A stretch of DNA of 64,000 bases from Nanoarchaeota archaeon SCGC AAA011-D5 (lineage in GTDB: Archaea; Nanobdellota; Nanobdellia; Pacearchaeales; GW2011-AR1). The position numbers and the translations under genes are program-made. This document shows, in pieces, positions 28,161 to 61,217 of this stretch (within the stretch, counting starts at the first letter, position 1; each line of letters begins with the position of its first letter). The notes beneath the pieces are model-generated. The model ran no database searches. It was not told the origin of the DNA and saw only the letters and a program-made list of their open reading frames with translations. The stretch lies in NCBI GenBank assembly GCA_000405225.1, contig ASMP01000002.1, positions 70,073 to 134,072 of the forward strand, read 5' to 3'.

Positions 28161-28967
28161 TTATTTTTCTTCGACACCAATAGCCCTCTCAAAGAGCGTT
28201 GCAAATGCCTGGGCAAAGAACTCAGAGTTAAGCCAGATTGCAGTATCATTAGGGTCGCTGTTTTTTGACAGGTAAAAAAGTATTTCTTTTTTATCAACTA
28301 TGAAGAATTTGGCATCAACATCTACCTTCTTTATTTTTGTTCCAATGACTTTTTCAATCTTCTTTATCAGCTTTTCATCGCCGGAGAGGGCGAGCTTAAT
28401 CTTGATGTTATTTTTGTTAAGGTCTTCAAAAGTTTGCTGGAAAAGTTTGAGTTTAAAGTTTATTTCCCCGGCATTTGTGCAGATTATCACTTCCTTAGAA
28501 GCTTTCTGCAGGATTTCTTTCAGATAATTGGATATGTTTGACCTTCCTTTTATGGCTGCAGATAGGTCTTCGTGTTTTACAGGGTTCAGCCCTTCTCTGT
28601 AAAGTTTTTCAAGTTTAACGAATTCCTCAGAGGTTTTTATATTGGAAAGGCTGATTATCCTTTCTTCAGCGTCTGATCTGACATTATTTTTAAGTTTTTC
28701 AAGAATCATGTGCGGCTTTATCCCAATGTATTTTACTGGCTTCCCGAGTTTTATGATTGTAAAGCCTTTCTTTTCCAGGCTCTCAAGAACATCATAGGTT
28801 CTTGAGCGGGGAACGCGGGAAATTTCTGCAATCTCTCCGGCAGAAGCCACGCCCTTTCCAAGCAGGGCTAGCCAGACCTTTGTCTCATAAATGTTAAGAT
28901 CAAAGTAATCCTTAATCCTGCTTATCAATTCCTGTCTTACGAGCATTTTATTTATTACCTCCTTCAT
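28161..28967 (-). CDS. TrmB-family transcriptional regulator
   Basis: DLNIYETKVWLALL...VPRSRTYDVLESLEKKG. Confidence 0.9.
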   Translation of the reverse strand: MKEVINKMLVRQELISRIKDYFDLNIYETKVWLALLGKGVASAGEIAEISRVPRSRTYDVLESLEKKGFTIIKLGKPVKYIGIKPHMILEKLKNNVRSDAEERIISLSNIKTSEEFVKLEKLYREGLNPVKHEDLSAAIKGRSNISNYLKEILQKASKEVIICTNAGEINFKLKLFQQTFEDLNKNNIKIKLALSGDEKLIKKIEKVIGTKIKKVDVDAKFFIVDKKEILFYLSKNSDPNDTAIWLNSEFFAQAFATLFERAIGVEEK

Positions 28968-29706
28968 TCACAACAACTACCCGACCATAAGCAAGAGAGT
29001 TGTTCAAGTCCCAGTTGTAGGATTCTAGGACCAAGACGGTGTTCAGGTCCAACCTGGAAAGGCCAGAATCTCTTGTGTAAAGGGTTCTGTTTCCTTCACC
29101 TAATTTTGTTGGAAGTCCTGTTTTTTCATCAATGTCTTCTGAATTAAATCTCCCTCTTTCGTTTAATACAGGTGCTTCATAAACTTTAGCATTCTCCCTT
29201 AATCTGAATGTTAAACCATAATCATTATCTCCATTCGCAAGTTCAAGTCCTGTTAAAGGAACCATTACTGGATTCTTAGGACTGAATTTTATTCCCCTTG
29301 CCCTAAGTTGAGAACCAATGTCTTTCGCTAAAGGAGTATTTCTAGAAAAATCTCTGTCTTCTTCGCTTCTTAATACAAGCCCAGTATCTTCATATGTTCC
29401 TATTAAATCACAACCAATTCTAAGTGCTTTTTCAAGGTCAGCTTGTGTAGCTGTTCTTAATCCCTCTTGCCTTAAAATCTGGTTTGCAAGAACAACTGCA
29501 AAAGAGTTGCTTCCTTTTACAACGCCAGAATCATGTCTAAGAACATTTAATGCCGAAACATCTTTGTAATCAGATTTAACTCTTCCTTGATATTCTTCTA
29601 AGAAAGCTATTCCAAAATCTCCTTCAAGAAATCCTATTTGAAGTGTTTCTGTTGGATTTTCAGTTAAAGGTGTTCCTCTGAATGTTGGGAGCCTTGTTTC
29701 TGTCAT
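28948..29706 (-). CDS. DGR-target-like (CLec-fold-like) protein
   Basis: C-terminus SGLSRLDLNTVLVLESYNWDLNNSLAYGRVVVV resembles DPANN DGR variable proteins; variable-looking codons end in C. Confidence 0.55.
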   Translation of the reverse strand: MTETRLPTFRGTPLTENPTETLQIGFLEGDFGIAFLEEYQGRVKSDYKDVSALNVLRHDSGVVKGSNSFAVVLANQILRQEGLRTATQADLEKALRIGCDLIGTYEDTGLVLRSEEDRDFSRNTPLAKDIGSQLRARGIKFSPKNPVMVPLTGLELANGDNDYGLTFRLRENAKVYEAPVLNERGRFNSEDIDEKTGLPTKLGEGNRTLYTRDSGLSRLDLNTVLVLESYNWDLNNSLAYGRVVVVNEGGNK

Positions 29707-30063: not shown

Positions 30064-30843
30064 ATGGTAAGAAAAATATCTGATAAAAAAACACAATTAA
30101 TGCAAGAATTGTATGATAAAGGTTTAGATGTTGTAGAAATAGCCAGAAGAGTGAATGTTTCTTATAGCACAGCATACGGTTATACAAAATTGAAACAAAG
30201 AATTAATCCGGAAACAGGAAGGAAGTTTGAATCAATAAGTCAATTAAGGGATTACCAAGCGAGACATAGGATTAATCCGGAAACAGGACAGGCGTTTGAA
30301 TCAAGAAGTCAATATGAGGAATATAGAGCGAGACATATGTTTAATCTGGAAACAGGACAGGCGTTTGAATCAAGAAGCCAATATGAGGAATATAGAGCGA
30401 GACATAGGATTAATCCGGAAACAAGAAAGGCGTTTGAATCAAGAAGCCAATTAATGGATTACCAAGCGAGACATAGGATTAATCCGGAAACAGCCCAGGC
30501 GTTTGAATCAAGAAGTCAATATGAGGAATATAGAGCAAGACATAGAATTAATCCAGAAACAGGACAGGCGTTTGAATCAAGAAGTCAATATGAGGAATAT
30601 TTAGCTGAGCAGAGACAAAGAAGGCTAAAAAATAAAAAGCTTAGCAATTTAATAAAAAAGAGATTAAAAAAGCTTAGGAAAAACCAGTCCTGGTTATCCA
30701 GAGAAGTAGATGTTTCAAAAGAAACTGCTTCTATGTATACACATGGAAAAAGTATACCAACTGAAGAAAGATTAGAAAGATTGTTTTCTGCACTTGGTGT
30801 CAAATGCAGAACCTTGGAGGATTTATTAGAGGAAAAACACTAA
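30064..30843 (+). CDS. HTH - 23-aa repeat array - XRE HTH DNA-binding protein
   Basis: N-terminal HTH, six RINPETGxxFESxSQ repeats, C-terminal NQSWLSREVDVSKETASMYTHG XRE motif. Confidence 0.8.
   Translation: MVRKISDKKTQLMQELYDKGLDVVEIARRVNVSYSTAYGYTKLKQRINPETGRKFESISQLRDYQARHRINPETGQAFESRSQYEEYRARHMFNLETGQAFESRSQYEEYRARHRINPETRKAFESRSQLMDYQARHRINPETAQAFESRSQYEEYRARHRINPETGQAFESRSQYEEYLAEQRQRRLKNKKLSNLIKKRLKKLRKNQSWLSREVDVSKETASMYTHGKSIPTEERLERLFSALGVKCRTLEDLLEEKH
30193..30606 (+). repeat. 69-bp coding tandem repeat x6
   Basis: Six units of AGGATTAATCCGGAAACAGGACAGGCGTTTGAATCAAGAAG-type sequence. Confidence 0.95.
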
Positions 30844-34751: not shown

Positions 34752-36812
34752 CTAAATCAGTCTCTCCTCAACTATTCTAGAGATGCCGTGCTCTTTGCGG
34801 AATCGTATCACGTTTTCTACAAAGCTCTCTATTTTCGGCTCATGACTGACAATTATAAGCTGCTTAACTTCCAGCTGCCGCAAAACATCGCGCATCTTAT
34901 CGAGTTGCTGCTCTGAAAATCCGTCGGTAGGCTCGTCGAGAATGACCAAATCCTTGGTCTTTATCCTGCTCATGAGTGAATTGACCACCCGGTTCAGCGA
35001 AAGCCTGTAGGCAAGGGCTATTGCTGTTCTTTCGCCCCCGGAAAGATAAGAGTAGTCTATCTCATAATCCTGATGATATATTATAGGAGTGAATTCCTCG
35101 TCCAGGCTCACATCAAAAACATCTGAGACAAGCATAGAGAACCATTCTGCAAACAACCTTGAGAACTCTGATTTCAGTCTCACCATTACATTTTTCTCTG
35201 TGAAAGAAATCAGAGAGACGAAGTTTCCTGAAAACCATTCTTCCAGTTTCGTTATGATTTCCATCTTTTCTCTTATTTCCTCTGTCTTTTTGATTCTGGC
35301 TTTTAAGTCTTCTATCTGGCGAGAGAATACTTCTATCTCTTTTTTCAGCTCTGCGACTTTTATCTCTGCTATTCTTTCCTGCTTTATTGCTTCTTTGAGT
35401 TCTTTGTCTTTCAATTCAAGAACAGTTTCAAATTTTTTCATTTCAAAAACACTCTTAGTGAGGTTTTCCGCGTGCTGCTCCAAAAGAACTATGTCTTTCC
35501 TGAGAATCTCGCTGGATTTTTCCATCTCCGCAAGCCCTGCTCTTTTGCCGTCTATTTCCTGAAATCTCATTTTTTGCATCCTTAACTCTGAAAGCCTTTT
35601 TTCTTCTGCAGAGATGTCTGCTTCTATTTTTTTCATATCTTCCAGGATCTTTTTCTTTTCAGAGGCCAGAGACTCTATTTTTTTCAGATTTTCCGTTGTT
35701 TCTGAATCAATGTTATTTAAGACATTTGTTTTGTAAACAGGGCCAACATTCTGCAGGCATATTGGGCATATCTCTATGTGTTTTAACTGCTCTTTTATCT
35801 TCCTGATGTCCTGGTTTTTTAGATTAAGGGAGTTTATCTGTGAGGTGATTTTTATGTTTTCCTCGTTCAGCTTTTCTTTTTCTGCTTTCTTGAACTGCAT
35901 CTTTAATTCTGCTTCCTTTATTTTGGTTTCATCAAATTTTAGGCTTTCCAGATCTTTTATCTGAATTTTCAGCTGCTCAAGGGTTTTTTCGTTATTCAAG
36001 AGGGTTTCTTTTTTGTTTGCAGAGACAATTTTTGTCTTTTCTATTTCCTGCTGCAGTTTTCTCCTTTCCTCTGTCTTTTTTAAGACCTCGTCTCTTTCTT
36101 CCTGTGCATGCCCCATTTCCTCTGTCCTTAGAAAGAGCTCTTTTTCTACAGAAGAAAGATTCAGATGTTTTCCTTCAAGTTCTTCTTCTTTGGAGAGAAG
36201 GGATTCTTTGTCTTCTTCAAGATTTGCAATCTGGCCTTCTTTCAGTCTTTTTTCCTCACGAAACTTTGAGGCAACTATAGACACATTCTCAATTATCACT
36301 TTGTATTTGTCTATCCCAAAAACATGCCTTAGAGAGTTTATCCTTGTTTCAGGATCTTCAAGAATAATCTGCTTCATCTCTTCCTGCGGAGTGTAAACTG
36401 TGAATTTGTAGAGGATATTCTGTTTTTTTGAAAACTCTTTAGGATAGCTTAGGATTTCGAGGACCTTGTCTTTCAGTTCTGTGACGGACAGCTCTTTTTT
36501 TCTCCCTTCTAGTGTTATAGAGCAGTAATCCTGAGAAACCGCTTTTCCCTTTTTCAGTTTCCTTTCAATTATAATCTCTTTTCCATCAACATCCAGACGG
36601 AGGACAACCCCTCCTTCACTGGTTCCGTTTCTCAGAAGAGCAGTTCCCCTCTGTCCTGGTTGCAGTCCAAAAAGCGCAAACTCTATCCCAAGGAGTATGG
36701 ATGTTTTTCCTGAGCCTATGTCTCCTGAAAGAAGCGTGGACCCCTCTGGAAAAGATACTTCCTGATTTTCATAACTTCTGATATTGTTGAGGATTATTTT
36801 TTTAATTATCAT
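34752..36812 (-). CDS. rad50: Rad50 / SMC-like ATPase
   Basis: GDIGSGKT, CPIC zinc hook, LSGGE, LDEPT; real start MIIKKI at 36812 (ORF track 36911). Confidence 0.95.
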   Translation of the reverse strand: MIIKKIILNNIRSYENQEVSFPEGSTLLSGDIGSGKTSILLGIEFALFGLQPGQRGTALLRNGTSEGGVVLRLDVDGKEIIIERKLKKGKAVSQDYCSITLEGRKKELSVTELKDKVLEILSYPKEFSKKQNILYKFTVYTPQEEMKQIILEDPETRINSLRHVFGIDKYKVIIENVSIVASKFREEKRLKEGQIANLEEDKESLLSKEEELEGKHLNLSSVEKELFLRTEEMGHAQEERDEVLKKTEERRKLQQEIEKTKIVSANKKETLLNNEKTLEQLKIQIKDLESLKFDETKIKEAELKMQFKKAEKEKLNEENIKITSQINSLNLKNQDIRKIKEQLKHIEICPICLQNVGPVYKTNVLNNIDSETTENLKKIESLASEKKKILEDMKKIEADISAEEKRLSELRMQKMRFQEIDGKRAGLAEMEKSSEILRKDIVLLEQHAENLTKSVFEMKKFETVLELKDKELKEAIKQERIAEIKVAELKKEIEVFSRQIEDLKARIKKTEEIREKMEIITKLEEWFSGNFVSLISFTEKNVMVRLKSEFSRLFAEWFSMLVSDVFDVSLDEEFTPIIYHQDYEIDYSYLSGGERTAIALAYRLSLNRVVNSLMSRIKTKDLVILDEPTDGFSEQQLDKMRDVLRQLEVKQLIIVSHEPKIESFVENVIRFRKEHGISRIVEERLI

Positions 36813-36819
36813 TGCCCAA

Positions 36820-37980
36820 TCATATAGCAAAGATTTTTTTAGTTTCATCCAAAAGCCTGTTGGTAAAACTTTCCGTGGTTTCACCTTCCTGTTTTTCAGT
36901 GGACAGTGCACTCATTATTTGGGGGATAAACTTGTTGAATGCCGCAGGATTTTGTTCGGAATATTTTTTTATTGACTCCTCCTCTATATTTTCTGTTTCG
37001 GGGATTTCAGTCGCAATCTCTGCCTCTTTTGTCTTCAAATCGTGGGTATTTCGCAGCAAAAAAAAAGCTCCTTTTTTCTTTGCGGTTTCCTCTATCTTGG
37101 CAAATTTTATATCAGAGTGTTTTCCGCTTTCCAGAATCCCGCGTATCCTCAGAAGAACTATCTTGTCTTCCAGATCTTGCTTTTCAAGTTCGGAGAGAAT
37201 CTGCTCTGTTGCCCTTATGGCGTTTTTTACCTCTATATCAAAAGAAACCACGTTCTTGATTTTCAGGTCGATTCTTTTTAAGGGTTTTTCAAGACTGGAA
37301 TCCACGATGTAAAATCTTCCGTGCTGCAAATCTTCCAGTTCCTGGAAATTATTCGGAAATATTGGACCGGGATAAACAAAATTTTCATATTGAAAATCAA
37401 TGTGCAGGTGTCCAAGGGCATAATAGTCTGCCTTGGGGACTTTTGAAATTTCAAGAGCGTCTATGGGAAGGTTCCCTTTCGCCTTGTCTATAGTCGTATG
37501 CAGCAGAAAGATTTTGAATAAGCCAGGGGCTTCGTCAAACTGAGCTCTTCTCAAATCCCCCACTTCAAGTCCAGAGGTTTTTCCAGGATATCCGTAGAGT
37601 GCAACCCCTTTATGAATCGTCGGACTCAATATTATCCTATCATTTTTTTCTTCAAACACGGCGACGTTTTTGCAAAAACCTGCCTTCTCCAAAACATCGA
37701 GGAAAGTTTTTCCAGAAACAGAATAGTCGTGGCTTCCTGCAATTAAAAAACACGGGATTCCTGCTTCTTTTAGTTTTCTGAATTCCGCAAAACTTTCTTT
37801 AAGGACGTCTATTGGCGGGAAAGCTGCATCAAAAAGATCTCCTGCAATAACCACGAATTCTACTTTCTCCCCGATGCATATTTCAAGAGCCTTTTTGAAG
37901 GACTCGAGATTAAGATCCTGCAGAGGCTGTTGTTTCCATCCTCCGAGATGTACGTCAGCTATATGGGCAAATTTTACCAT
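36820..37980 (-). CDS. mre11: Mre11 nuclease
   Basis: ADVHLG, AGDLFD, GSHD, LLHT, LGHLH. Confidence 0.95.
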   Translation of the reverse strand: MVKFAHIADVHLGGWKQQPLQDLNLESFKKALEICIGEKVEFVVIAGDLFDAAFPPIDVLKESFAEFRKLKEAGIPCFLIAGSHDYSVSGKTFLDVLEKAGFCKNVAVFEEKNDRIILSPTIHKGVALYGYPGKTSGLEVGDLRRAQFDEAPGLFKIFLLHTTIDKAKGNLPIDALEISKVPKADYYALGHLHIDFQYENFVYPGPIFPNNFQELEDLQHGRFYIVDSSLEKPLKRIDLKIKNVVSFDIEVKNAIRATEQILSELEKQDLEDKIVLLRIRGILESGKHSDIKFAKIEETAKKKGAFFLLRNTHDLKTKEAEIATEIPETENIEEESIKKYSEQNPAAFNKFIPQIMSALSTEKQEGETTESFTNRLLDETKKIFAI

Positions 37981-38073
37981 TTTGCTTCACCATTTTTTAC
38001 TAAATTTAAAGCATACAAGAACTATATAAAATTGATTGTGATTTAGTCCAAATTTTATATAAAAGGTCTTAGC

Positions 38074-38384
38074 AGCTAAGGCCATTCCAAAAGCACAGCT
38101 GTTCTCGTTGTTGCCATGGTTGTTCGAGTTAACATTCAACCTGTTGTTGCCCAAGTTCCTGTTGGAATTCAGACTCGCAACCCAGCTATGTAGCCAGTTT
38201 ATCTCATGAAATTTTTATTTTTCATGTCAGGAATCTTGCCTGCACAGAGCAAAATTTAATTTGCACACCATCGCTTCAAGTTTCGCAAATATTAGATATA
38301 AAAACTACTATTTGTCGCGATTGAATTTTATGACTTAAAATAAACCTGAATAATGCCTTAATAAACTGGCGTGTGGCCTTAGCT
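38074..38384 (-). ncRNA. Putative DGR template RNA (structured 5' domain + TR), bounded by long-range pairing
   Basis: 11-bp IR 38374-38384/38074-38084 encloses TR; nested 10-bp IR 38361-38370/38193-38202; hairpin 38205-38226; no avd ORF. Confidence 0.6.
38087..38183 (-). repeat. DGR template repeat (TR)
   Basis: 97 nt, 30 adenines on minus strand (12 AAY codons in target frame); differs from VR only at adenines. Confidence 0.97.
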
Positions 38385-38447
38385 CAAGCTTTTTTTAAGC
38401 TCTGCTAAGACAAATAAATAAGTAAAAACAGGTTTAAATTTTTTGCG

Positions 38448-38464
38448 AACCAGCTTCGCTGGTT
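38448..38464 (-). other. DGR target-recognition hairpin (7-bp stem, GAA loop)
   Basis: AACCAGC-GAA-GCTGGTT immediately after the target stop codon. Confidence 0.85.
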
Positions 38465-39165
38465 TACTTCAACACCCCAAAAGCACAGCAGTACTCGTCG
38501 CTGCCACGGTCGTACGAGACAACATCCAACCCGTCGTCGCCCAAGTCCCCGTCGGAACCCAGACCCGCAACCCCTGCTTCTGGTGTTTTCAAACTTGATA
38601 AATCTGGAACCCAAATGTGAGCTTTTTTATCTGGGTGTTTTGATGCAAGTTCTGCAAGTTTTTCAGCTCCTTCTTCACCACCAGCCCATGCAACAAAGTA
38701 AGGATGCTTTCCTACTTCTTTCCAGCTAACAGGACCTTGCCTAAGATGTTCAAAAGAAACTTGCGCACGGCTTTCGGCTAATCTTTTTAGCAAACCACCT
38801 CTATCAACAACAGAATTCTCATCAAATTCAGGATTATCTATAAAATGAGCAATTCTTTCTTTTGGAAGGTAAAGAATTCCTGTAAATCCTCTGAAATATC
38901 TATCTTTCATAATCTGATTAACTTCTCTTGCTTGAGGTTCATTGCCACTAAAATATTCATGAACAAAAGAAACTAATTCCGAAGTTGTTGGTTCTCTATA
39001 ACCAGTTGGATTTTCAGAAGAACCTCTTATTCGCCTTAAAAGATTCAGGGAATTTGCAGGGCCATAAAACGGATGCACCGCTGTTAAAATTTTTCCCTTG
39101 TGTGGAAAATCCATTTCTGTTCTTCCAACTCTTATTCTTTGTCTTGTGTCAGATTGAGTTTCCAT
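38464..39165 (-). CDS. DGR variable (target) protein, CLec-like
   Basis: C-terminal VR encodes VAGLGSDGDLGDDGLDVVSYDRGSDEYCCAFG. Confidence 0.92.
   Translation of the reverse strand: METQSDTRQRIRVGRTEMDFPHKGKILTAVHPFYGPANSLNLLRRIRGSSENPTGYREPTTSELVSFVHEYFSGNEPQAREVNQIMKDRYFRGFTGILYLPKERIAHFIDNPEFDENSVVDRGGLLKRLAESRAQVSFEHLRQGPVSWKEVGKHPYFVAWAGGEEGAEKLAELASKHPDKKAHIWVPDLSSLKTPEAGVAGLGSDGDLGDDGLDVVSYDRGSDEYCCAFGVLK
38477..38573 (-). repeat. DGR variable repeat (VR)
   Basis: Aligns to TR at offset 390: 19 mismatches (15 A>G, 4 A>T), none at the 67 non-A positions. Confidence 0.97.
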
Positions 39166-39186
39166 AGTTTTCTCATAAAAATGAAG

Positions 39187-39210
39187 TTTATAAATCTTTC
39201 TATTTTGTTA
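39187..39210 (-). promoter_or_regulatory. Shared 24-bp promoter of DGR target
   Basis: TAACAAAATAGAAAGATTTATAAA, identical to 41556-41579 and 46902-46925. Confidence 0.8.
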
Positions 39211-39243
39211 TTCTTTTTAAGAGGTAACAAAAGAGGAGTGATT

Positions 39244-39639
39244 TTAAAACAATGCCCTAAAGAAAAGATTGCTGAAAAAGAGAGATATTTCTTCTTTGAA
39301 GAAAATAACGGCAGCCAGAACTCCAAATGAGAGAAGAAGAAGGGCAAAAAGTATGAATGTTATTGCTGTTCCTGTTCTGCTTGGTTTTTTTCCGTAGTTT
39401 CCGTATTCCGAAACTCTCTGGACAACTGTCTGAGCCGTCATAGGGGAGGGAATTTTCTGCTGCGGTTGCTGGAATTGCGGCTGGGGCTGATAAGTTGTCG
39501 GCATCTGCAAAACACTTGCGGCTTCTTCGATGTCTTCTTTCGAATAACCTGCATTAAAAAAACTGGTCAGAGCCTTTTCCAGAGGCTCTCCTTTGGAAAC
39601 AGCCTGCCTCAAGCCCTCAACAATCTCCTCTTTAGTCAT
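39244..39639 (-). CDS. Hypothetical C-terminally anchored membrane protein
   Basis: NAGYSKEDIEEA N-domain, Gln/Pro linker, TM helix. Confidence 0.6.
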   Translation of the reverse strand: MTKEEIVEGLRQAVSKGEPLEKALTSFFNAGYSKEDIEEAASVLQMPTTYQPQPQFQQPQQKIPSPMTAQTVVQRVSEYGNYGKKPSRTGTAITFILFALLLLSFGVLAAVIFFKEEISLFFSNLFFRALF

Positions 39640-39760
39640 GTTTGATAAAAGAAGTTTTAGTTTAAAAACATTAGTCTGGAGATTGGTAATAAAAACTGTT
39701 AATTTAAAAAAGATTTATAGTTATATAGTTAGATGGTATGTGTAAGTTAGAAATTTCTTT

Positions 39761-41110
39761 TTAATCAAACCTCAGAATTTTTCCGTTGGGGGATAAATGA
39801 GAAGTTTCGCCAAACTTATAGCCGAGTTCTCCCACAAGTTCAATTAAAGGGGTTTCCTGCTGTAAAGAACCATGTGCAGGGATTACGTGCTCTGGTTTTA
39901 ACATATTCACGAGATCCCTCATGTCTTCCCTGGCGCCATGCCCTGAAACATGCACATCTGTCTGAATCCTCACTCCCTTTTTTCTAAGCCTTTTGTCCAT
40001 TCTTTCTCTGGCGTTTATATTAACAGGGTCTGGAATGACGCTGGAGCAGAAAACTATGTTGTCTCCTTCCCTGAGTTTTAGAGGAGTTTCGTCCTTTACT
40101 ATCCTGTCAAGTATAGAGCCGGGTTCTGCCTGATGTCCTGTGCACACAATCAGGTATTTCCCCCTGTTTTTTTCCACTTTTCCCAAGAAAGAATCTACCT
40201 GCTTCCTGTATTTCATCATCGCTATGTCTTTTTTGAAGGGGCATTGTCCTACTTTTATTGCTGCATTTGTATATTTGTAAAGGCTTCTTCCAACAAAGAT
40301 TATCTGCCTTCCTGTTTTTTTTCCGAAATCAACTATGCTCTTAAGCCTTGATATATGGGAAGAAAAAGTCGTGACAATGAAGGCAGCATTTCTGTCTCTT
40401 ACAGAAGAAATGGCATCTTCAACCATATTTCTTGCTATTCTCTCACTCGGTGTTTTCCTTTCTAATTTTGAATAAAGGGCATCAAGCACGAGTACTTTGA
40501 TTCCTTTTCTTCCAAGCTCCCTTAGTTTGTTGTATCTCGGGGGGTCTCCTATTATAGGATAGTTATCGAATTTAAAATCCAGCGCATAAAAAAAAGTTCC
40601 TTCAGAAGTATGCATTGCTATGAAAACGCACTGCAAAGTTGAATGCGTCGCGTGAATGAACTCCATCTTTATCTGACCAGAGCTTCCATTTAAGACATAA
40701 GTTGAATCTTCCTTGACAATTCGCCTTCTGTTTTTAACGACAATTTTTTCACTTTCCAGAATTTCATCAAGAACAGCCATCGTGAAAGGTGTTGCAATTA
40801 TTTCTGCCTGAGGATACCTGTGAACAAGATAAGGCAATGCCCCTAAATGGTCCAGATGTGCGTGTCCTATGACTATAGCCTTAACTTTATTTGTCCAGCC
40901 GTATTTGTCAAGGACAAGATCATCCGGAAGCGCTCCAATTCTCCTTAAATCTTTCTCGTTATAGATGCGCTCATGGCTTTCTTCTTCCTGGATTTCTATT
41001 ATTGCAGGAAGATAAATCCCTGCATCAAAGATTATCACGTCGTCCTTGACTTTTACAGCAGTCATGTTCTTTCCAACCTGCTCAAATCCACCAATTGTGC
41101 AAACTTCCAT
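39761..41110 (-). CDS. rnj: Ribonuclease J
   Basis: GGFEQVGKNMT, GHAHLDHLG, HVSGH, PAHG. Confidence 0.95.
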   Translation of the reverse strand: MEVCTIGGFEQVGKNMTAVKVKDDVIIFDAGIYLPAIIEIQEEESHERIYNEKDLRRIGALPDDLVLDKYGWTNKVKAIVIGHAHLDHLGALPYLVHRYPQAEIIATPFTMAVLDEILESEKIVVKNRRRIVKEDSTYVLNGSSGQIKMEFIHATHSTLQCVFIAMHTSEGTFFYALDFKFDNYPIIGDPPRYNKLRELGRKGIKVLVLDALYSKLERKTPSERIARNMVEDAISSVRDRNAAFIVTTFSSHISRLKSIVDFGKKTGRQIIFVGRSLYKYTNAAIKVGQCPFKKDIAMMKYRKQVDSFLGKVEKNRGKYLIVCTGHQAEPGSILDRIVKDETPLKLREGDNIVFCSSVIPDPVNINARERMDKRLRKKGVRIQTDVHVSGHGAREDMRDLVNMLKPEHVIPAHGSLQQETPLIELVGELGYKFGETSHLSPNGKILRFD

Positions 41111-41268
41111 TTCATAAAGGAAGTTTGTTTGGTTTAAAAAGTTTTAATGTTAAAACTTTTAATTTTAAGCTGATAGGGTGACTAATTTGATTAGTTGATT
41201 ATAATATGCCTGCTAGTAATACCATGATTCATGGCTAATTTTATAAATAAACTTGTTCTATTTAATTC

Positions 41269-41541
41269 ATGAAACCATTAAAGCCAAGCATGAGGGAAAA
41301 CAAAAGGTATCTCCTTGTAAAAGGGAATGGTCTCGGAAAAAATGTCAAGAAAGCAATTCTGGAAGGCATAGGTGTTTTGGGGCTTTCTAAGGCCGGTTTT
41401 TCCTGGATAAAGAAAGGAGAAGAATCCGCAATTATCGCCGTAAACAGGGAAGCCCTGAGTGAAGTGAGGGCGAGCTTTGCGATTTCTCCGGAGAAAATTC
41501 AGGTTGAACGAGTTTCCGGAAGCCTGAAAAAGCTAAGATAG
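41269..41541 (+). CDS. RNase P protein Pop5/Rpp14
   Basis: LKPSMRENKRYLL...VSGSLKKL. Confidence 0.85.
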   Translation: MKPLKPSMRENKRYLLVKGNGLGKNVKKAILEGIGVLGLSKAGFSWIKKGEESAIIAVNREALSEVRASFAISPEKIQVERVSGSLKKLR

Positions 41542-41555
41542 TAATTCTTTAGTAA

Positions 41556-41579
41556 TAACAAAATAGAAAGATTTATAAA
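41556..41579 (+). promoter_or_regulatory. Shared 24-bp promoter
   Basis: TAACAAAATAGAAAGATTTATAAA, 21 nt upstream of ATG 41601. Confidence 0.8.
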
Positions 41580-41600
41580 TATTATATTGTTTGGTGAAAA

Positions 41601-41981
41601 ATGGAAAGTTTAGAAGATATTGCTGGTATTGATTGGTCTAAAGCATTGCCCAAAGGCAGAAATCCAAATGAGACAAGAAGGATGGTATTATACGAAATAA
41701 GAAGAGGAATCAAAGGGAGATGGGGATTTTTAAGGAACCTCACCAAAACAGAAGATGAAGTTATTCAAATTATTATGTCAACAAGAATAACAAATGATAC
41801 TGAAGCTGCTAAAAAAGTTATAAGATATTTAGAGAACACTAATTATGTTCATTATAGTGATGGTTCTGGTGATATCTCTCTTTGTAATGATGGATATTAT
41901 AATTTAAAAAGAGTTCAGGATAGAAAGGAAAATATAAGATTTAAAATCCTGGATCTTCATTTGCCTACCCATTGGGACTGA
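41601..41981 (+). CDS. Hypothetical protein
   Basis: 126-aa ORF with own promoter, inserted between pop5 and psmA. Confidence 0.6.
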   Translation: MESLEDIAGIDWSKALPKGRNPNETRRMVLYEIRRGIKGRWGFLRNLTKTEDEVIQIIMSTRITNDTEAAKKVIRYLENTNYVHYSDGSGDISLCNDGYYNLKRVQDRKENIRFKILDLHLPTHWD

Positions 41982-42193
41982 TTAATTCTGGTGTAATATC
42001 ATAAATCTTTATAAAAGTGTTTATTTGCTGATAAAGAATATTAAAATGTCATTAGTGAATAAGCTAGAAGGGATGATATAGAATAAAGCTTAAACTCCCC
42101 ACAAAAAGGTTTTTAAACCTCAAGATTTTTTAATTCTTGGTTGAGAAGAAATAGAGAATCAGTTTAAATTATACACTTCTCCAAAATTAGAAA

Positions 42194-42919
42194 ATGGACA
42201 TGCCAATAGACATGCAGCACCAGGCAATGGGCTATGACCGAACTGCCACTATGTTTTCCCCTGAAGGAACCATCCTCCAGGTTGAATATGCGCAGAAGAC
42301 GGTCAGGCTCGGAAGCTCGAGCATAGGAATGATTTGTGTAGACGGGGTTTTTCTTATAGCTGACAAAAGAATGAAAGATAAGCTTGTAATTCAGAAATCC
42401 GCAAACAAGATTTATGAGATAGATTCCCATATAATTGTATGTGCGGCAGGAATAGTCTCTGATGCAAGGGTTCTCATAGAAAGAGGCCAATTGAGTGCGC
42501 AGCAGCACAGGATTACTTACGATTCTCCCATAGAGCCAGAACTCATAATAAAAGAGATTTCAAACATTAAACAGCAGTTCACCCAGTATGGAGGAGCAAG
42601 GCCTTTCGGTGTTTCTCTGATGGTTGCGGGAATAAGGGCAAAAAAGCCAGAGCTTTACACCAGCGACATCACCGGAAATTATTTCTCTTATCATGCAAAT
42701 GCGATAGGTGAAAATGAAGAAAAAATAAGGGAAAAACTGAGAGAACAGTACAAGCCTGAGCTAAACATCAAGAAAGGAGTTAAGCTTGCTTTAGATATCT
42801 TCAAGGAAATCCAGGGTAAAAACTTTGACTTGGAAAGGTTCGATCTCGTGTACATAAAAAATGAAGAAGGACGACTCCAGAGAGTGAAAGAAGAAGAATT
42901 GAAGGAGTTTGTCAAGTAA
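42194..42919 (+). CDS. psmA: Proteasome subunit alpha
   Basis: GYDRTATMFSPEG..QVEYA, RPFGVSL. Confidence 0.97.
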   Translation: MDMPIDMQHQAMGYDRTATMFSPEGTILQVEYAQKTVRLGSSSIGMICVDGVFLIADKRMKDKLVIQKSANKIYEIDSHIIVCAAGIVSDARVLIERGQLSAQQHRITYDSPIEPELIIKEISNIKQQFTQYGGARPFGVSLMVAGIRAKKPELYTSDITGNYFSYHANAIGENEEKIREKLREQYKPELNIKKGVKLALDIFKEIQGKNFDLERFDLVYIKNEEGRLQRVKEEELKEFVK

Positions 42920-42930
42920 TTATTATTAAT

Positions 42931-43614
42931 ATGGTTCAGACTACAGCAAGAATAAAGCAGAGCGGAAAACATTTTGAGATTATGGTTGATCTGGACAAGG
43001 CCCTTAAGTTCAGGAAAGGGCAGTCTTCAAGCACGGATTTTCTGGAATCAGAAAGTATTTTTACAGATTCAAAAAAAGGATTTCATGCTTCTGAAAAAGA
43101 TCTCATGGAATCTTTCGGAACCAAAGATGCTGTAGAAATCGCGAAAAAAATAGTGAAGTCCGGGGAAATTCTTCTCACTCAGGAACACAGAGACGGGGAA
43201 AAGGACAAAAAAATAAAACAAGTGATTGATTTTCTCGCCGTCAATGCATCTGACCCAAAAACAGGAATGCCCCACACTCCTGAAAGAATAAAAAATGCTC
43301 TGGAACAAGCTCAGGTAAACATAAAAAATACCCCTATAGAATCCCAAATAAGAGAAATTATTGAAAAAATAAGCCATATCCTTCCCATAATGTTAAAGAC
43401 AAAGAGGATAAGAATTTTAGTTCCTGCAATCCATACGGGAAGAGCTTACGGAATTTTCAGCCAGTATAAAGAAAGCGAAAACTGGCTTTCAAATGGCGAC
43501 CTTGAAGCGATAGTCAATATTCCTTCAGGATTGCTGATGGAGTTTTATGAAAAATTAAATGCTATAACTCATGGTGCAGCAGTCACAGAAGAAATTAAGG
43601 AGAAGGAAAAATGA
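42931..43614 (+). CDS. Ribosome maturation factor SBDS/Sdo1
   Basis: KHFEIMVD, IFTDSKKG, PHTPERI. Confidence 0.92.
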   Translation: MVQTTARIKQSGKHFEIMVDLDKALKFRKGQSSSTDFLESESIFTDSKKGFHASEKDLMESFGTKDAVEIAKKIVKSGEILLTQEHRDGEKDKKIKQVIDFLAVNASDPKTGMPHTPERIKNALEQAQVNIKNTPIESQIREIIEKISHILPIMLKTKRIRILVPAIHTGRAYGIFSQYKESENWLSNGDLEAIVNIPSGLLMEFYEKLNAITHGAAVTEEIKEKEK

Positions 43615-43838
43615 GTAGTCCTGAGATGTTTTATTTAGAAATGCTTGCGAACATTGAAACTCCGGCTCTTTCCGGAGGATTTGGTGTTAAAGAGAATCAT
43701 CAGATTTACCATGATTACTGTCAATTAAGAAACTCTGCTAAAGATTTATTAAGCAACCCCCAAGATACAGAAGCAAGAAGAAAGTTATCAGAATTAATAA
43801 TTAAATTAGAATTATTAGAATTAACAAAAATAAATTGA
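43611..43838 (+). CDS. Hypothetical protein
   Basis: 75-aa ORF overlapping the SBDS stop (ATGA). Confidence 0.5.
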   Translation: MSSPEMFYLEMLANIETPALSGGFGVKENHQIYHDYCQLRNSAKDLLSNPQDTEARRKLSELIIKLELLELTKIN

Positions 43839-43840
43839 AA

Positions 43841-44512
43841 ATGGAACGCAAAGTTGTAATCCCGGGGGAAGTTATTGCATCTGGAGAAGACTATCTGCCG
43901 GGTGAGGGAACAGAAAAACGCGGCCAGGAAATAGTTGCAATCCGCTATGGCCTTGCAGAAGAATCAAACAGGCTTGTCAGAGTGATTGCCCTTTCCGGAA
44001 TCTATCAAGCAAGAAGAGGCAATGTAATCATAGGAAAAGTGGAAAACATCACATTCAATGGATGGGTTGTGGACATAGATTCTCCAATAGGGGCATTTTT
44101 GCCTTTATCAGAAGTGCCAAGGTTTGTCAGCAAAGAAGCAATGGCTGAGGTTTTTGACATAGGAGATATGATTGTAGCGAAGATTCTCGGAGTCAACGGA
44201 AGAGGAATAGATTTGACGATAAAATCCAGAGGATTGGGGAGGATAGAAGAGGGAATGATAATAAAGGTAAATTCCAACAAGGTTCCGAGAGTGATTGGAA
44301 AGGAGGGAAGCATGATAGGGATAATAAAGAAAGAAACAGGCTGTGAAATAACTGTGGGCCAGAACGGATTGATATGGGTCAAAGGAAACAAAATAGAGGA
44401 CGAGCTTTTTGTGAAAAGGGCTATAATGTTTGTCGCAGAAAAATCCTCAACTTCTGGATTGACAGAAGAAGTGCAGAAATGGTTTGACAAACAGAAAGGA
44501 GGAAAAGAATAA
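43841..44512 (+). CDS. rrp4: Exosome RNA-binding subunit Rrp4
   Basis: VVIPGE, S1 domain, KH VPRVIGKEGSMI, VGQNG; ATG 43841 preferred. Confidence 0.95.
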   Translation: MERKVVIPGEVIASGEDYLPGEGTEKRGQEIVAIRYGLAEESNRLVRVIALSGIYQARRGNVIIGKVENITFNGWVVDIDSPIGAFLPLSEVPRFVSKEAMAEVFDIGDMIVAKILGVNGRGIDLTIKSRGLGRIEEGMIIKVNSNKVPRVIGKEGSMIGIIKKETGCEITVGQNGLIWVKGNKIEDELFVKRAIMFVAEKSSTSGLTEEVQKWFDKQKGGKE

Positions 44513-44514
44513 GA

Positions 44515-44883
44515 ATGAAGAAAAAAATTAATTTATATGCAATAGGAAATGAAGGGAATTTTAGTTATTATTTATTTGATAAAAAGAATGAGGTTTATCT
44601 TTCCTTGGAAAGATTACTAAATGAAATTTTTGACTTTTATCTTGAAGAATTTGTTCATGAGAATAACAAAAAAACCAATGTTGAAAAGTATAATGACCTT
44701 CATAAAAGAAGTCCTATAAATACCTCTAACAATTCTCGAGTTGACATTTTTTATGGTAACAAAAAAATGTTTGTTACAATTCATTCTTCCCTGAAGTTAA
44801 GACTAAAATTTAATGAAAAGTTATTCAAAATTGTAAATATGCCAAAATTAGTACAAATTAAATCAAAGAAAAATAAGAAATGA
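44515..44883 (+). CDS. Hypothetical protein
   Basis: AT-rich 122-aa ORF between rrp4 and rrp41, overlapping the rrp41 start. Confidence 0.5.
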   Translation: MKKKINLYAIGNEGNFSYYLFDKKNEVYLSLERLLNEIFDFYLEEFVHENNKKTNVEKYNDLHKRSPINTSNNSRVDIFYGNKKMFVTIHSSLKLRLKFNEKLFKIVNMPKLVQIKSKKNKK

Positions 44884-45584
44884 CAACAAAAACTTTCAAA
44901 AGACCTGACGGAAGGAAGCCAGAAGAAATAAGGCCGATGAGTGCAAAAGTGGGAGTTGTCCCAAATGCAGACGGAAGCGCTATGTTCTCTTTTGGAGACA
45001 CTGTAGCAATAGCAGCTGTTTATGGTCCGAGAAAAATGCATCCGCAGCATTCGCAAAATCCTGAAAAAGGGACTTTGAGATGCAACTACAACATGTTCAG
45101 CTTTTCCGTCGCAGAGAGGGCACGCCCAGGTCCCAATAGAAGAAGCACAGAGATAAGCAAGATAACAGAATGGGCACTTGAGCCGATAGTCATGATCAAG
45201 AAATATCCGAACATGGTAGTTGATGTTCACATAGGCATTCTGCAGGCAAACGCTTCCACGAGATGCGCAGGAATAAATGCCGCTGCCCTTGCACTTGCAC
45301 ATGCAGGGATTCCCATGAAAGAGATGGTTTCAAGCGTTTCTATAGGAAAACTCGACAAAAACCTGGTAGTTGATGTTGTAAAAGAAGAGGAAGATTGGGA
45401 AGAGGGAGAAGGAGCCACAGACATTCCAATAACACTTACAAACAGCGGAAAGATAACGCACATTCAGTTAGACGGAAAAATAACTTCCGAGGAGCTGAAA
45501 CAAGTCTTAAAACTCGCAAAAAAAGTAAACAAAGAAATCTATGAAGTACAGAAAAAAGCATTAAAGGAGTCTGTCAAATTTTGA
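44880..45584 (+). CDS. rrp41: Exosome subunit Rrp41
   Basis: RPDGR, ADGSA, YGPR, RRSTEIS, ASTRCAG. Confidence 0.95.
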   Translation: MTTKTFKRPDGRKPEEIRPMSAKVGVVPNADGSAMFSFGDTVAIAAVYGPRKMHPQHSQNPEKGTLRCNYNMFSFSVAERARPGPNRRSTEISKITEWALEPIVMIKKYPNMVVDVHIGILQANASTRCAGINAAALALAHAGIPMKEMVSSVSIGKLDKNLVVDVVKEEEDWEEGEGATDIPITLTNSGKITHIQLDGKITSEELKQVLKLAKKVNKEIYEVQKKALKESVKF

Positions 45585-45596
45585 AGACAATAAAAA

Positions 45597-46397
45597 ATGG
45601 AAACATCAAAAATAACAGGAGAGAGAATTGCAGAATACTTAAAACAAGGAAAGAGATTTGACGGAAGGAAGCCTGAGGAGTTCAGGAAGATAGAGATAGA
45701 GACAGGAGTCTCAAAAAAGGCAGAAGGCTCTGCAAGAGTCAAGATAGGAAAGACAGAAGTCATAGTCGGCGTTAAAATGGATGTCATGGAACCTTATCCT
45801 GATTCTGCAGATAGGGGAAATCTGATAGTTTCTGCCGAGCTTCTTCCTTTAAGCTCTGAAAGATTCGAGAGCGGGCCTCCAAGATTCCCTGCCATAGAAA
45901 TAGGAAGGCTTACAGACAGGGCGATAAGAGAAAGCAAATTCATACAGATGGAAAAACTATGCATAAAAGAAGGGGAAAAAGTATGGGCTATTTATATAGA
46001 CATATACTCTTTGAATGACGACGGAAATCTGATGGATGCGGCAGAAATCGGGGCAGTTGCTGCCCTTAAAACAGCAAGGATGCCAAAATATGACGAAGAA
46101 ACAGAAAGGGTTGTCTATGGAGAGTTCACAGACAAGAAAATACCCCTGCAAAAAGAGCCTCCTATAATGATAACTGCCTACAAGATAGGGGATTCGTGGA
46201 TAGTTGATCCGACTCTTGAAGAAGAGGATATCTCACAGGTAAAAGTAAGCATTGGAGCAACACCCGAGGGAATAATCTCCTCTATACAGAAAGGGGAAGC
46301 CAGTGAGATAAGCATAGAGGAATTTGAAGACGTGATAGAGCTTACAGAAGAAATCAGAAAGAAAGTTTTTTCAAACATAAAAAATTCGCTGGAGTAA
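45597..46397 (+). CDS. rrp42: Exosome subunit Rrp42
   Basis: RFDGRKPEEFR, AEGSA, DDGNLMDA, VDPTLEEE. Confidence 0.95.
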   Translation: METSKITGERIAEYLKQGKRFDGRKPEEFRKIEIETGVSKKAEGSARVKIGKTEVIVGVKMDVMEPYPDSADRGNLIVSAELLPLSSERFESGPPRFPAIEIGRLTDRAIRESKFIQMEKLCIKEGEKVWAIYIDIYSLNDDGNLMDAAEIGAVAALKTARMPKYDEETERVVYGEFTDKKIPLQKEPPIMITAYKIGDSWIVDPTLEEEDISQVKVSIGATPEGIISSIQKGEASEISIEEFEDVIELTEEIRKKVFSNIKNSLE

Positions 46398-46398
46398 A

Positions 46399-46776
46399 AT
46401 GCAACAGGAAAAGGAAAAATTCAGCAAATATGAAATCGCGAGGATTCTTGGAGCAAGGGCCCTTCAGATAGCGATGAATGCCCCTTTGCTGATAAAATTA
46501 AGCAAAGAAGACCTGGAAAAAGTAAAATATGATGCCCTAAAAATAGCTGAAATTGAATTTGAATCGGGAGTTCTTCCAATCTCTGTCAAAAAACCTTTCC
46601 CGGAAAGAAAAGAAGACGTTCTAAGGAGACCAAAGGAGCAGAAGATAAGCGACGAGAAAATCGAGGAAAAAGAAGCTGCAGAAGAAGGGGAGATTGCAAA
46701 ACAGGGAGAAATTATGGGCCTTGTAAACCCGGAGGAAGAAACAGAAGAGGAAGTTGTGGGGGGAGAAAGTGAGTGA
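46399..46776 (+). CDS. rpoK: RNA polymerase subunit K (Rpo6) with acidic tail
   Basis: FSKYEIARILGARALQIAMNAP. Confidence 0.95.
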   Translation: MQQEKEKFSKYEIARILGARALQIAMNAPLLIKLSKEDLEKVKYDALKIAEIEFESGVLPISVKKPFPERKEDVLRRPKEQKISDEKIEEKEAAEEGEIAKQGEIMGLVNPEEETEEEVVGGESE

Positions 46777-46835
46777 ACTCGTCCAAGCGTGGCCGAGTTA
46801 GAGGAAACTCGTCCTAGCTATGCCGAATTAGAGGA
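46776..46835. repeat. REP-like unit, two tandem 30-bp copies
   Basis: AACTCGTCCAAGCGTGGCCGAGTTAGAGGA / AACTCGTCCTAGCTATGCCGAATTAGAGGA. Confidence 0.7.
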
Positions 46836-57273: not shown

Positions 57274-58627
57274 CGTGGACGTGAAAACATGGTGAGGGAA
57301 GAAGTTCCTTTATCAGTTTGAGAAAATAACTCACAATTATTTTCAATGAGATAAGCAACGAATGGTTTTCCTGATTTAGAAGGACATACTATTACCGACG
57401 CTGTTAGATGGATGGCTTGGTTTTGGTTTCGATGAAAGACGTGGCAAGCTGCGATAAGCTTGGGGGAGCCGCATGCAAGCTTTGATCCCAAGATTTCTGA
57501 ATCGTGCACCCATGTTTACATGGTCTGCAAGAATACGCCGGGAATTGAAACATCTTAGTACCGGCAGGAAGAGAAAATAAATTAATGATTCCCCTATTAG
57601 CAGAGAGCGAAAAGGGAAGAGGGCAAACCGAATCTCCTCTTGAAAGGGAGGCAGAGATGTGGTGAGCGTAAATTCCTAAGTCGTCGAGTCAAACTTCTCT
57701 GGAATGAGAGGCCTTGGAGAGTGATAGCCTCGTAGACGAAGATGATATGGAGTTGCTTTAAAGAGTAGGGCTCCCTGGATTGGGGGTCTGAATACGGCAG
57801 GATTAACTGCCAACCCTAAATAAAACCAAAGTCCGATAGCGCACTAGTACCGCGAGGGAATGCTGAAAAGAACCCGTAACAGGGAGTGAAAAGATCTGAA
57901 ATCTAACAGTTACAGTTTGTTACTGCCCTTTCCTCTTCGGAGGATTGGGGTTGTAACGTACGTTTCGAAGAACGAGCCAGGGAGTTTATTTGTGTGGCGA
58001 GGCTAATCATCTATAATGAGTAACCGAAGCGAAAGCAAGTTGGAAACAGCGAGAGTCACACGAATCAGACCTGAAGCCAGGTGATCTAATCATGGGCAAG
58101 GTGAAGTCTTCCGAAAGGAGGATGGAGGCCTGAACCAGTGTTGTGTACATGCACTTGGATGATCTGTGATTAGGGGTGAAAAGCCTATCTAACCTGGTGA
58201 TGGCTGGTTCCTGCTGAAATATGCCTCCGTATAGTCTTGTCTAGCTTGTCGACGGTGTAAAGTACGGATAAAATTTGCAGAGGCTAATGCCTACGGAATT
58301 TTTTCCAACTCAGAATCTGTCGACTGCATAGGACAAGAAACAGGGTGTGTATGTAAGATACACCTCCGAGACCCAAAAAAGGGAGACCAGAGTTAAGGTC
58401 CCTAAATTCATGCTAAGTGCGACAAAAGGTGTCCTGGACCTGAGACACTAGGGATGTAAGCTTAGAAGCAGCTATCATTTAAAGAAAGCGTAACAGCTCA
58501 CCTATCGAGGCCCAAGGCCCTGAAAATGGACGGGGCTAAGCATGGTACCGATACTCTGGAGGCACTCGGTTTAAAATAGTATAACAAAAATCAAAGATTT
58601 TTGTGCGTCTGCCAAGATGGTAGGCGC

Positions 58628-59140
58628 GGGAAGAATTTTTTATATGAAATAGGAAAAGAAAAGGTTTTTAAACTTTAAAGTAACAACAAAATTATGAATT
58701 TGAAGACGCTCCTTACAACAAAAAAAGATGAAAGAATAATGATGGATTTTGCTAGAGGAAAGATTAATTATTTAGAGGATGGTTTTCTTCAAAAAAATTT
58801 CCCAGACTTGTTTAGAAATCTTAAAAGTTATCGCGGTAGATGGGATGAGTTTGGAGAAGAACTTGAAAGAAGGTGTATAGAAAGAACAAGAGATATTTCA
58901 CAAAGAAAGGTAGATTATGGTGCAATACTTCATAATGTTGGAGTTGCTATTCCATTTTATTTTTTTACTGCACTCGTTAATATTGTTGGTGGTCTTGGTG
59001 GGGGGATTCATAAAACCCAAGAGATGCTTGATGAGGATTTAAGACCATATATGAAACCAACTTATAAATTGGCAAATTCTAATTAAAATATAATTCACAA
59101 ATCATATTCAACGAAAGTTGATTTCATAATTAATTCTTCC
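58628..59140 (+). mobile_element. Inverted-repeat-bounded gene cassette, copy 2 (inside 23S)
   Basis: Ends match 51175-51197 and 51503-51540; left and right ends pair 9 bp + 8 bp. Confidence 0.8.
58694..59086 (+). CDS. Cassette cargo: hypothetical 130-aa protein with hydrophobic segment
   Basis: Intact ORF with upstream TTTTAAA box; no LAGLIDADG/HNH/GIY-YIG motif seen. Confidence 0.7.
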   Translation: MNLKTLLTTKKDERIMMDFARGKINYLEDGFLQKNFPDLFRNLKSYRGRWDEFGEELERRCIERTRDISQRKVDYGAILHNVGVAIPFYFFTALVNIVGGLGGGIHKTQEMLDEDLRPYMKPTYKLANSN

Positions 59141-59838: not shown

Positions 59839-59875
<37 letters not shown>

Positions 59876-61099: not shown

Positions 61100-61217
61100 T
61101 TTCAGCCCACAACTACTAAAAGCCTCAATTTGAATTTTCTTTATAAGAAGATTCTATAATATGTTATGTCCACACAATTCTTTTTCAGAAAACCATTCGT
61201 TGTTTGTTGAGTTTTTT
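61100..61217 (+). repeat. 23S 3'-end repeat copy 1 (118 bp identical to 61891-62008)
   Basis: Exact direct repeat; first 39 bp also at 62571-62609. Confidence 0.95.

Follow-up and report, generated by a model that had tools for sequence, protein, structure and literature searches.

How can a diversity-generating retroelement (DGR) keep all of its cis-acting parts while having no reverse transcriptase (RT) gene of its own? This question is raised by a cassette in a 64-kb stretch of DNA from Nanoarchaeota archaeon SCGC AAA011-D5, a DPANN archaeon; the whole stretch is called the window here, and coordinates are window positions. The cassette is a DGR of the DPANN-archaeal RT-16 type, in which the RNA motif RT-16 (Rfam RF03019) stands beside the template repeat, and it has every cis-acting part and no RT gene. 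We favour the reading that it is a non-autonomous cassette served by an RT in trans over the reading that it is a recent relic, and we give the favoured reading about an even chance. The argument begins with the repeats, since any claim that this is a DGR depends on them.

The cassette region holds one 97-nt direct repeat, detected with a repeat finder at 38087-38183 and 38477-38573, whose copies are 80% identical. These copies are the template repeat (TR) and the variable repeat (VR), and the VR lies in an open reading frame (ORF), the target gene. The VR ends in a boundary resembling the initiation of mutagenic homing (IMH) site of DGRs, with a counterpart (IMH*) in the TR.

38464 to 39165, minus strand: target gene, an ORF of 233 aa with the VR at its C-terminus
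38087 to 38183, minus strand: TR, found by the repeat finder, with 30 adenines on the coding strand
38477 to 38573, minus strand: VR, with 19 differences from the TR, every one at a TR adenine
38470 to 38484, minus strand: VR 3' boundary, IMH-like GCTTTTGGGGTGTTG, with the TR counterpart GGAATGG
38448 to 38464, minus strand: 7-bp GC-rich hairpin with a GAA loop (AACCAGC-GAA-GCTGGTT), starting within the target stop codon

The VR has changed 19 of the 30 TR adenines (15 A>G, 4 A>T and 0 A>C) and 0 of the 67 other positions, and the probability that all 19 mismatches would fall on adenines by chance is 7.8e-13. All 30 TR adenines occupy codon position 1 or 2 of the target frame (probability 5e-6 under a uniform expectation), and the VR makes up the last ~35 codons of the target ORF. 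The repeat ends in GCTTTTGGGGTG in the VR and in GCTTTTGGAATG in the TR, giving an asymmetry of GGGGTG versus GGAATG; an equivalent contrast, GG(G)TG versus (G)AATG(G/A)C, is found at most of 29 related loci compared, where the TR end is well defined. The GAA-loop hairpin is presumably the target-recognition hairpin, and most RT-16 cassettes, whether RT-bearing or RT-less, have such a GC-rich stem behind the VR, its loop being GAA or, occasionally, AAA or GUA. An earlier sequence-only reading of this DNA had described the 97-nt pair with its 19/30 and 0/67 counts, the adenines at codon positions 1 and 2, the IMH/IMH*-like boundary, the 7-bp hairpin at the target stop, and an mre11 gene ~100 nt past the TR. 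The repeat finder and the alignments bear out each of these observations, with the distance to mre11 measured at 106 nt.

The target protein has no Pfam match. Its AlphaFold (AF2) model has a mean predicted local distance difference test (pLDDT) score of 92.7, and the only significant match of the model in the PDB is 5IOO (E 9.7e-6; template-modelling scores 0.57/0.62), a Nanoarchaeota DGR variable protein with a C-type lectin fold. Homologs of the target (n = 62, ~230 aa, the one named match coming from a Pacearchaeota archaeon) align along a conserved scaffold, and the hypervariable block is formed by the last ~30 residues. Judged by its model, the target has a C-type lectin fold and is an ordinary archaeal DGR variable protein. 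The cassette thus resembles the known DGRs of DPANN archaea and Nanoarchaeota (represented by 5IOO and by an RT clade that DPANN archaea have in common with bacteria from the candidate phyla radiation, CPR) in its target fold, its adenine-specific TR/VR pair, its C-terminal VR and its AAY-rich TR.

The cassette differs from these DGRs in what is missing. In a six-frame scan of the window, no Y/FxDD motif was found in an RT-like open frame; tblastn with the complete RT of a related locus (L021) gave no match in the window, even at E<=10; and Pfam profile searches found no RVT_1 or Avd domain in any window gene. A DGR-clade RT with the [I/V/L]GxxxSQ motif is encoded neither in the cassette nor elsewhere in the 64 kb, so that the RT-less state claimed from the sequence alone stands for the window on all three lines of evidence. 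The same reading had noted that no avd gene fits between VR and TR. This absence is real, as no Avd domain was found in the window, but it is not specific to the locus. RT-bearing cassettes of the clade likewise have RT-16 at the avd place, and BLASTP clustering of the ORFs flanking the clade's cassettes revealed no recurrent Avd-like or small ORF, although a divergent Avd could be missed in this way. Hence, the absence of avd characterizes the clade.

What occupies the canonical avd position is a structured RNA, which lies in the 293-nt region between VR and TR and is accompanied by the following elements.

38185 to 38410, minus strand: RT-16 RNA (RF03019), long variant, scoring 105.2 bits against a gathering score of 50 and matching the full model (1-158)
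38431 to 38444, minus strand: TATA-like box AAAAAATTTAAACC, recognized by its sequence, ~27 nt upstream of the RT-16 5' hairpin
38374 to 38411, minus strand: 5' hairpin P1 and GGCCA, the 5' half of a predicted panhandle, from the RT-16 match and from duplex and fold computation
38066 to 38094, minus strand: TR 3' end (IMH*-like GGAATGG) and post-TR element TGGCCTTAGCTGCTAAGAC, the 3' half of the panhandle, conserved in related loci L002 and L021

The RNA begins ~40 nt downstream of the GAA-loop hairpin and ends 1 nt before the TR, and in every locus with a visible TR, RT-16 directly adjoins this DGR TR on the 5' side. The TATA-like box is probably the promoter of a non-coding RNA, and similar T/A boxes are seen at the same distance in several other RT-16 loci. 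The 19-nt post-TR element is predicted to pair with the RT-16 5' hairpin, closing RT-16 and TR into a panhandle. This element is missing from the Rfam RT-16 model, and in all three loci of the window's target family AATGGCYTTAGC..CTAAGA directly follows the TR. Across 35 loci, the post-TR segment is complementary to the 5' hairpin of RT-16 at the same locus and to the GGCCA behind it. The mean duplex energy is -24.2 kcal/mol for cognate pairs versus -17.5 kcal/mol for non-cognate ones (Mann-Whitney p 5e-9, a value inflated by some near-duplicate loci, while a few poor values stem from mis-set TR ends), and the cognate duplex of the window, at -29.2 kcal/mol, is the best of 35 partners. An unconstrained minimum free energy (MFE) fold of 38062-38418 on the minus strand reaches -105.1 kcal/mol (z -4.9; 0 of 100 shuffles fold as well) and contains the panhandle as a three-way junction enclosing the RT-16 core and the TR. 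In RT-less loci, runs of T behind the panhandle were considered as terminators; they are suggestive, but too common in AT-rich spacers to be accepted. The sequence-only reading had titled the cassette target-VR, hairpin and TR only. Those parts are all there, but the title is incomplete, because the RT-16 RNA and the post-TR pairing element are present as well.

RT-16 is one of 19 motifs found near RT genes by Weinberg et al. 2017, who linked only RT-10 to a DGR, speculated on the other motifs and assigned no role to RT-16 (PMC5737381). A sarcin-ricin-type loop has since been flagged in both RT-16 and RT-10, the latter being the Bordetella phage spacer RNA (PMC13085918). The window match is full-length and above the curated Rfam cut-off. 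However, the family is defined by proximity to an RT, whereas here mre11 adjoins, and six loci of the set described below have no RT.

The layout with an RT is known from sister loci, in which TR/VR pairs were found with an adenine-tolerant scan. On a contig of a metagenome-assembled genome (MAG; L021) and in a Nanoarchaeia MAG (L002), the order is target homolog, RT-16 (79 and 78 bits), TR and RT. The RT starts 30-32 nt after the end of the repeat, carries the DGR-type motif LGNLTSQ, and has its start codon ~3-12 nt after the post-TR element. RT therefore does directly follow TR in L002 and L021, as the sequence-only reading had assumed, and these adjacent RTs tie the window's sister loci to the known DPANN DGRs. 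The window cassette departs from them in having no RT in 64 kb and in running from target through RT-16 and TR to an unrelated gene.

36820 to 37980, minus strand: mre11 (Pfam Metallophos), starting 106 nt after the TR; context, outside the element
34752 to 36911, minus strand: rad50 (Pfam AAA_23/SMC_N/SbcC), following mre11

Here mre11 stands where RT sits in the sister cassettes. An RT could in principle have been dropped by a mis-join between TR and mre11, as repeats such as TR and VR can confuse assemblers. An 8.9-kb Logan contig (run SRR3927433), produced with a different pipeline, is 100% identical to 37852-46795 of the window and spans the TR-mre11 junction, so that the junction is not peculiar to one assembler. 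This contig ends only 128 nt into mre11, which leaves the artefact some room, but the RT-less layout recurs in four other contigs from other metagenomes, and the AT-rich spacer that precedes mre11 has TATA-like boxes at a distance suiting that gene. We therefore consider a mis-assembly, which the sequence-only reading had listed as an alternative, barely credible.

Aligned copies of one RT-bearing cassette show what this cassette type does. L036 and L002 represent one cassette sampled in two data sets, with an adjacent RT and the target family of the window. Over ~1.9 kb they are identical in register save for 12 positions, all within the VR and all at TR adenines. As the two copies differ at these sites only, we conclude from their comparison that the RT-16 cassette type is active when an RT is present.

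To what extent, then, do RT-16 cassettes occur without an RT? A scan of metagenome contigs for the RT-16 core pattern returned 42 loci, 38 of them true RT-16; with the window, L002 and L021 the set comprises 41 loci. The remaining pattern matches (L028, L039, L050 and L045) had neither an Rfam match nor a cassette and were rejected as chance, and viral contigs scanned for the core gave no match. An RT is adjacent in 32 of the 41 loci (32 of the 38 that can be scored), starting ~155-218 nt past the core. Three loci are too short to score, and six lack an RT, although 534-11,305 nt of sequence is available downstream. Five of these six are intact cassettes, namely the window, L026, L030, L047 and L059, and they share a consistent set of properties. 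Their TR/VR pairs have 0-1 non-adenine mismatch. Their RT-16 scores (105.2 bits in the window, near the top of the RT-bearing range, and 94, 106, 95 and 93 bits in L026, L030, L047 and L059, respectively) are comparable with the 80-111 bits of RT-bearing loci in the same scan. The post-TR pairing element is kept in L026, L030, L047 and L059, and no RT remnant was found in any intact RT-less locus. The genes that follow the cassettes in L026, L030, L047 and L059 are unrelated (radA, methylthioadenosine (MTA) phosphorylase, a membrane protein and a convergent ORF), and the targets of the intact RT-less loci belong to at least three families. The RT-16 bodies of the intact RT-less loci are mutually only 68-81% identical, and in a distance tree they are scattered among those of RT-bearing loci. 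The long RT-16 variant is found in all six RT-less loci and, apart from these, in only two loci, which have an RT; none of the 30 scorable short-variant loci is without an RT.

These data bear on the possibility that the window cassette was recently decapitated, that is, that its RT gene was lately deleted, that the genome has no RT left and the VR no longer changes, and that decay has yet to reach RT-16 and TR. The absence of an RT from the 64 kb is what such a relic would predict, as is the absence of VR variants: none of the target was found in the public protein collection, where its 90%-identity cluster holds 1 sequence, and the VR is identical in the second (Logan) assembly. Loss is also documented in the clade. 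The sixth RT-less locus, L027, has RT-16 without TR or RT and is 90% identical to the RT-bearing L053; it had been considered a truncated RT-16, but Rfam matches the full model. By its content, L027 is a true relic and shows what a relic looks like. Eroded states occur among target relatives as well. In the closest of them (L017, 73% identity), a VR and a hairpin are all that is present, and 15 kb of sequence contains neither TR nor RT-16 nor RT; 16 adenines and 5 other positions separate its VR from the window TR. In L018-20, the target homolog has an in-frame TAA within the VR (~7562-7658 in L018) and keeps the IMH-like end and hairpin ACCAGCTAAGCTGGT; no TR, RT-16 or RT was found within 10 kb in L018, L019 or L020, and an identical truncated protein of this type is present on 9 contigs.

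Against the relic stands the form in which the RT-less cassettes recur. A single old loss of the RT is incompatible with the data, because 0-1 non-adenine mismatches persist across RT-16 lineages 19-32% diverged, unless homing continued. At least five separate recent losses would therefore be required, each with a clean boundary just past the post-TR element and with no RT fragment left. Five such losses, all from loci with one RNA variant, are less economical, and cassettes served in trans are therefore favoured. The window also retains an RT-16 score near the top of the RT-bearing range and the best-ranked panhandle, and the 30 scorable short-variant loci include no case of RT loss. On balance, we regard a recent relic as unlikely, although it deserves to be taken seriously. 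The sequence-only reading had left open whether the cassette is a satellite borrowing its RT or a decapitated one; the census, with five intact RT-less cassettes, no RT remnant, and TR/VR and RNA scores like those of RT-bearing loci, favours the satellite without proving it.

It should be noted that several observations weigh against service in trans. No RT for this genome was found in a search that covered 64 kb of a 135-kb contig, the genome being likely several times larger. Searches with the RT family of L021 and L033 returned >6,600 near-equidistant homologs with no candidate among the best 120 listed; as the family is large and star-like, such searches could not single out a candidate RT. 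The association of the long variant with RT absence (Fisher p 1e-5; 1.2e-4 without duplicates and the relic) is drawn from related loci, so that its p-values overstate independence, and the census itself is biased against decayed copies, since the pattern search required an intact RT-16 core. The three largest contigs with an RT-bearing cassette (218-416 kb) hold no RT-less RT-16 copy under the strict pattern, and a master locus and a satellite in one genome have not yet been demonstrated. The absence of known variants of the window VR and the single-sequence target cluster count on the same side. So does the evidence of decay, as L027 establishes that loss occurs in the clade, and L017 and L018-20 show that cassette erosion is common among relatives.

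Some loci of the census are of interest in their own right. Contig Ga0208648_1000010 (218.8 kb) bears two RT-bearing RT-16 cassettes, L057 and L061, with identical TR statistics; unless the same locus was fetched twice, these are several such DGR loci in one genome. The RT-bearing long-variant locus L033 has two VRs (6667-6742 and 7424-7501) for one TR, with 11 and 18 adenine changes and 0 others, and an archaeal RNase P RNA is encoded ~6 kb upstream of its cassette.

Service in trans has experimental and genomic precedents. DGR parts have been shown experimentally to work in trans, also for remote targets (PMC5758913), and several DGR loci are common in DPANN genomes (Dore et al. 2024, PMC10907252). 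In the bacterium Thiohalocapsa PB-PSB1, degenerate RT-less DGR loci are apparently diversified in trans (PMC10907252). Those loci are recent, their RT has been replaced by arrays of miniature inverted-repeat transposable elements (MITEs), and they depend on a complete sister locus of the same class for TR and RT. The RT-less RT-16 cassettes, in contrast, are archaeal, have their own distinct TR and structured RNA, are cleanly bounded, and turn up with different targets in diverged lineages.

If the cassette is indeed served in trans, the following sequence of events may be proposed. The module would be transcribed from its own TATA-like promoter as a non-coding RNA of ~350 nt. A DGR-clade RT from elsewhere, either from another DGR locus of the genome or from a co-resident replicon, would bind the RT-16 fold, and the panhandle would set the TR 3' end beside the 5' region of RT-16, where self-priming could occur in analogy to the spacer RNA of the Bordetella phage. 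The TR would then be copied with errors opposite adenines, and the cDNA would replace the VR, with the IMH-like boundary and the hairpin fixing its position. In this manner, one RT could serve several template modules, as a long interspersed nuclear element (LINE) serves short interspersed nuclear elements (SINEs).

The analogy rests on the DGR of Bordetella phage BPP-1, which is organized as mtd, avd, TR, spacer and brt. Its spacer RNA, located 3' of the TR, binds Avd and supplies the cDNA priming site (PMC7826257). Like BPP-1, the window cassette combines adenine mutagenesis with an IMH/IMH*-like boundary, a hairpin after the VR and a structured RNA beside the TR. Unlike BPP-1, the window's clade has no Avd, its structured RNA is 5' rather than 3' of the TR, and a panhandle joins the two ends. 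By this comparison, RT-16, brought to the TR 3' end by the panhandle, would play the part of the BPP-1 spacer RNA. The substitution spectra also differ. BPP-1 in vitro misincorporation opposite A amounts to 22% dA, 18% dC and 12% dG (PMC7826257). In the window and 29 non-duplicate RT-16 loci, A>G changes strongly predominate (266, against 94 A>T and 13 A>C); dC opposite A corresponds to A>G in the coding strand. The spectra of RT-less loci (51 G, 24 T, 8 C) and RT-bearing loci (215 G, 70 T, 5 C) are similar, and the A>G skew could come from a bias of the RT clade or from selection favouring codons for Asp, Gly and Ser.

The promoter-like box and the conservation of the module where no RT is adjacent could also suggest that the RNA of RT-16 and TR has been reused without reverse transcription, for instance to regulate the target mRNA, with which it has 97 nt in common, or to act on it like an antisense RNA. 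However, TR and VR have the same orientation, so that their RNAs are not complementary; the adenine-only mismatches and the adenines at codon positions 1 and 2 are products of retrohoming and are kept in RT-less loci; and such a reuse has no precedent. We consider it very improbable. Returning to service in trans, a broader proposal may be put forward, tentatively and with somewhat less than an even chance: a distributed DGR in a DPANN lineage, in which modules of promoter, RT-16, TR and panhandle, each with its own target, are placed among housekeeping genes and served by one RT elsewhere, the long RT-16 variant being the handle that recruits it in trans.

Several features of the surroundings remain to be described. 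The window is archaeal chromosome: an Rfam scan identified an operon of 16S rRNA, tRNA-Ala and 23S rRNA, and the Pfam assignments include proteasome, exosome, RNase J, FttA, type IV pili and enolase. Genes of double-strand break (DSB) repair directly follow two of the five intact RT-less cassettes, mre11-rad50 in the window (34752-37980, minus strand) and radA in L026 (~4190-5203), while other relatives adjoin GINS, ScpB or aRF1. This adjacency may be due to chance in small genomes rich in information-processing genes.

Genes similar to the target occur both in the window and further afield. A second DGR-target-like gene (28948-29706, minus strand) shares 32% identity (E 2e-21), C-terminal block included, with L033's VR-bearing target and ends in GGTCGGGTAGTTGTTGTG, which is similar to the clade IMH. 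It was considered as a remote VR and rejected, as it is without a GAA hairpin, has no TR in the window and does not match the window TR; it could represent a fossil or else a paralog that is not diversified. Target homologs with 44-53% identity (L003-L014) are found on contigs assigned by binning to Bacteroidales or Bacteroidetes. Neither a TR nor RT-16 nor an RT is nearby, and the C-terminus of four of these proteins varies much less in the alignment. They could represent mis-binned DPANN contigs or an undiversified bacterial branch.

The rRNA operon and two repeat-containing genes also stand out. The 23S rRNA match (57384-61139, plus strand) spans 3,756 nt against a model of 2,987 nt, corresponding to an insertion of ~770 nt (an intron or an expansion); no Rfam intron family was reported for it, and its ORF at 58694-59086 has no Pfam match. 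A segment starting inside the 23S 3' end is repeated at 61092-61225 and 61883-62016 (126 nt, 98% identity), with a third copy of 47 nt at 62563-62609. The copies are spaced ~790 and ~680 nt apart with small ORFs between them, including a ParE-like toxin (61952-62359), and the arrangement looks like serial insertions at one site. At least six tandem 69-nt repeats (30123-30674, plus strand) within the ORF at 30064-30843 encode the 23-residue unit RINPETGQAFESRSQYEEYRARH between two helix-turn-helix (HTH) domains. Tandem repeats of 153 nt (1895-2479, plus strand) in the ORF at 1232-3109 encode Cys-/Gly-rich units (CVPASNPTLSGVCGSSVCGTAQNGTC...) of a predicted 625-aa surface protein, whose gene adjoins a Fic-domain gene and an archaeal type IV pilus cluster.

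The DGR, the C-type-lectin target and the Rfam motif are each of a known kind. Judging from the literature consulted, three points appear to be new: RT-16 as partner of a DGR TR on its 5' side, at the place canonical for avd; the covarying panhandle; and a class of RT-less modules that are intact, recur, and each have a TR and an RNA of their own. The orphan Rfam motif RT-16 thereby gains a place in DGR anatomy, and the compact Avd-free design might serve targeted mutagenesis tools. If the distributed-DGR reading is true, RT-16 modules would be the first natural non-autonomous DGR templates, with one RT for many templates, and the RT-16 RNA would gain a function in place of Avd and the spacer RNA. 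RT-less cassettes are invisible to DGR surveys, because such surveys start from the RT gene. Hence, if RT-less modules work, hypervariable proteins would be undercounted in DPANN archaea, and perhaps in CPR bacteria, and a single RT could programme several unrelated targets through separate RNAs.

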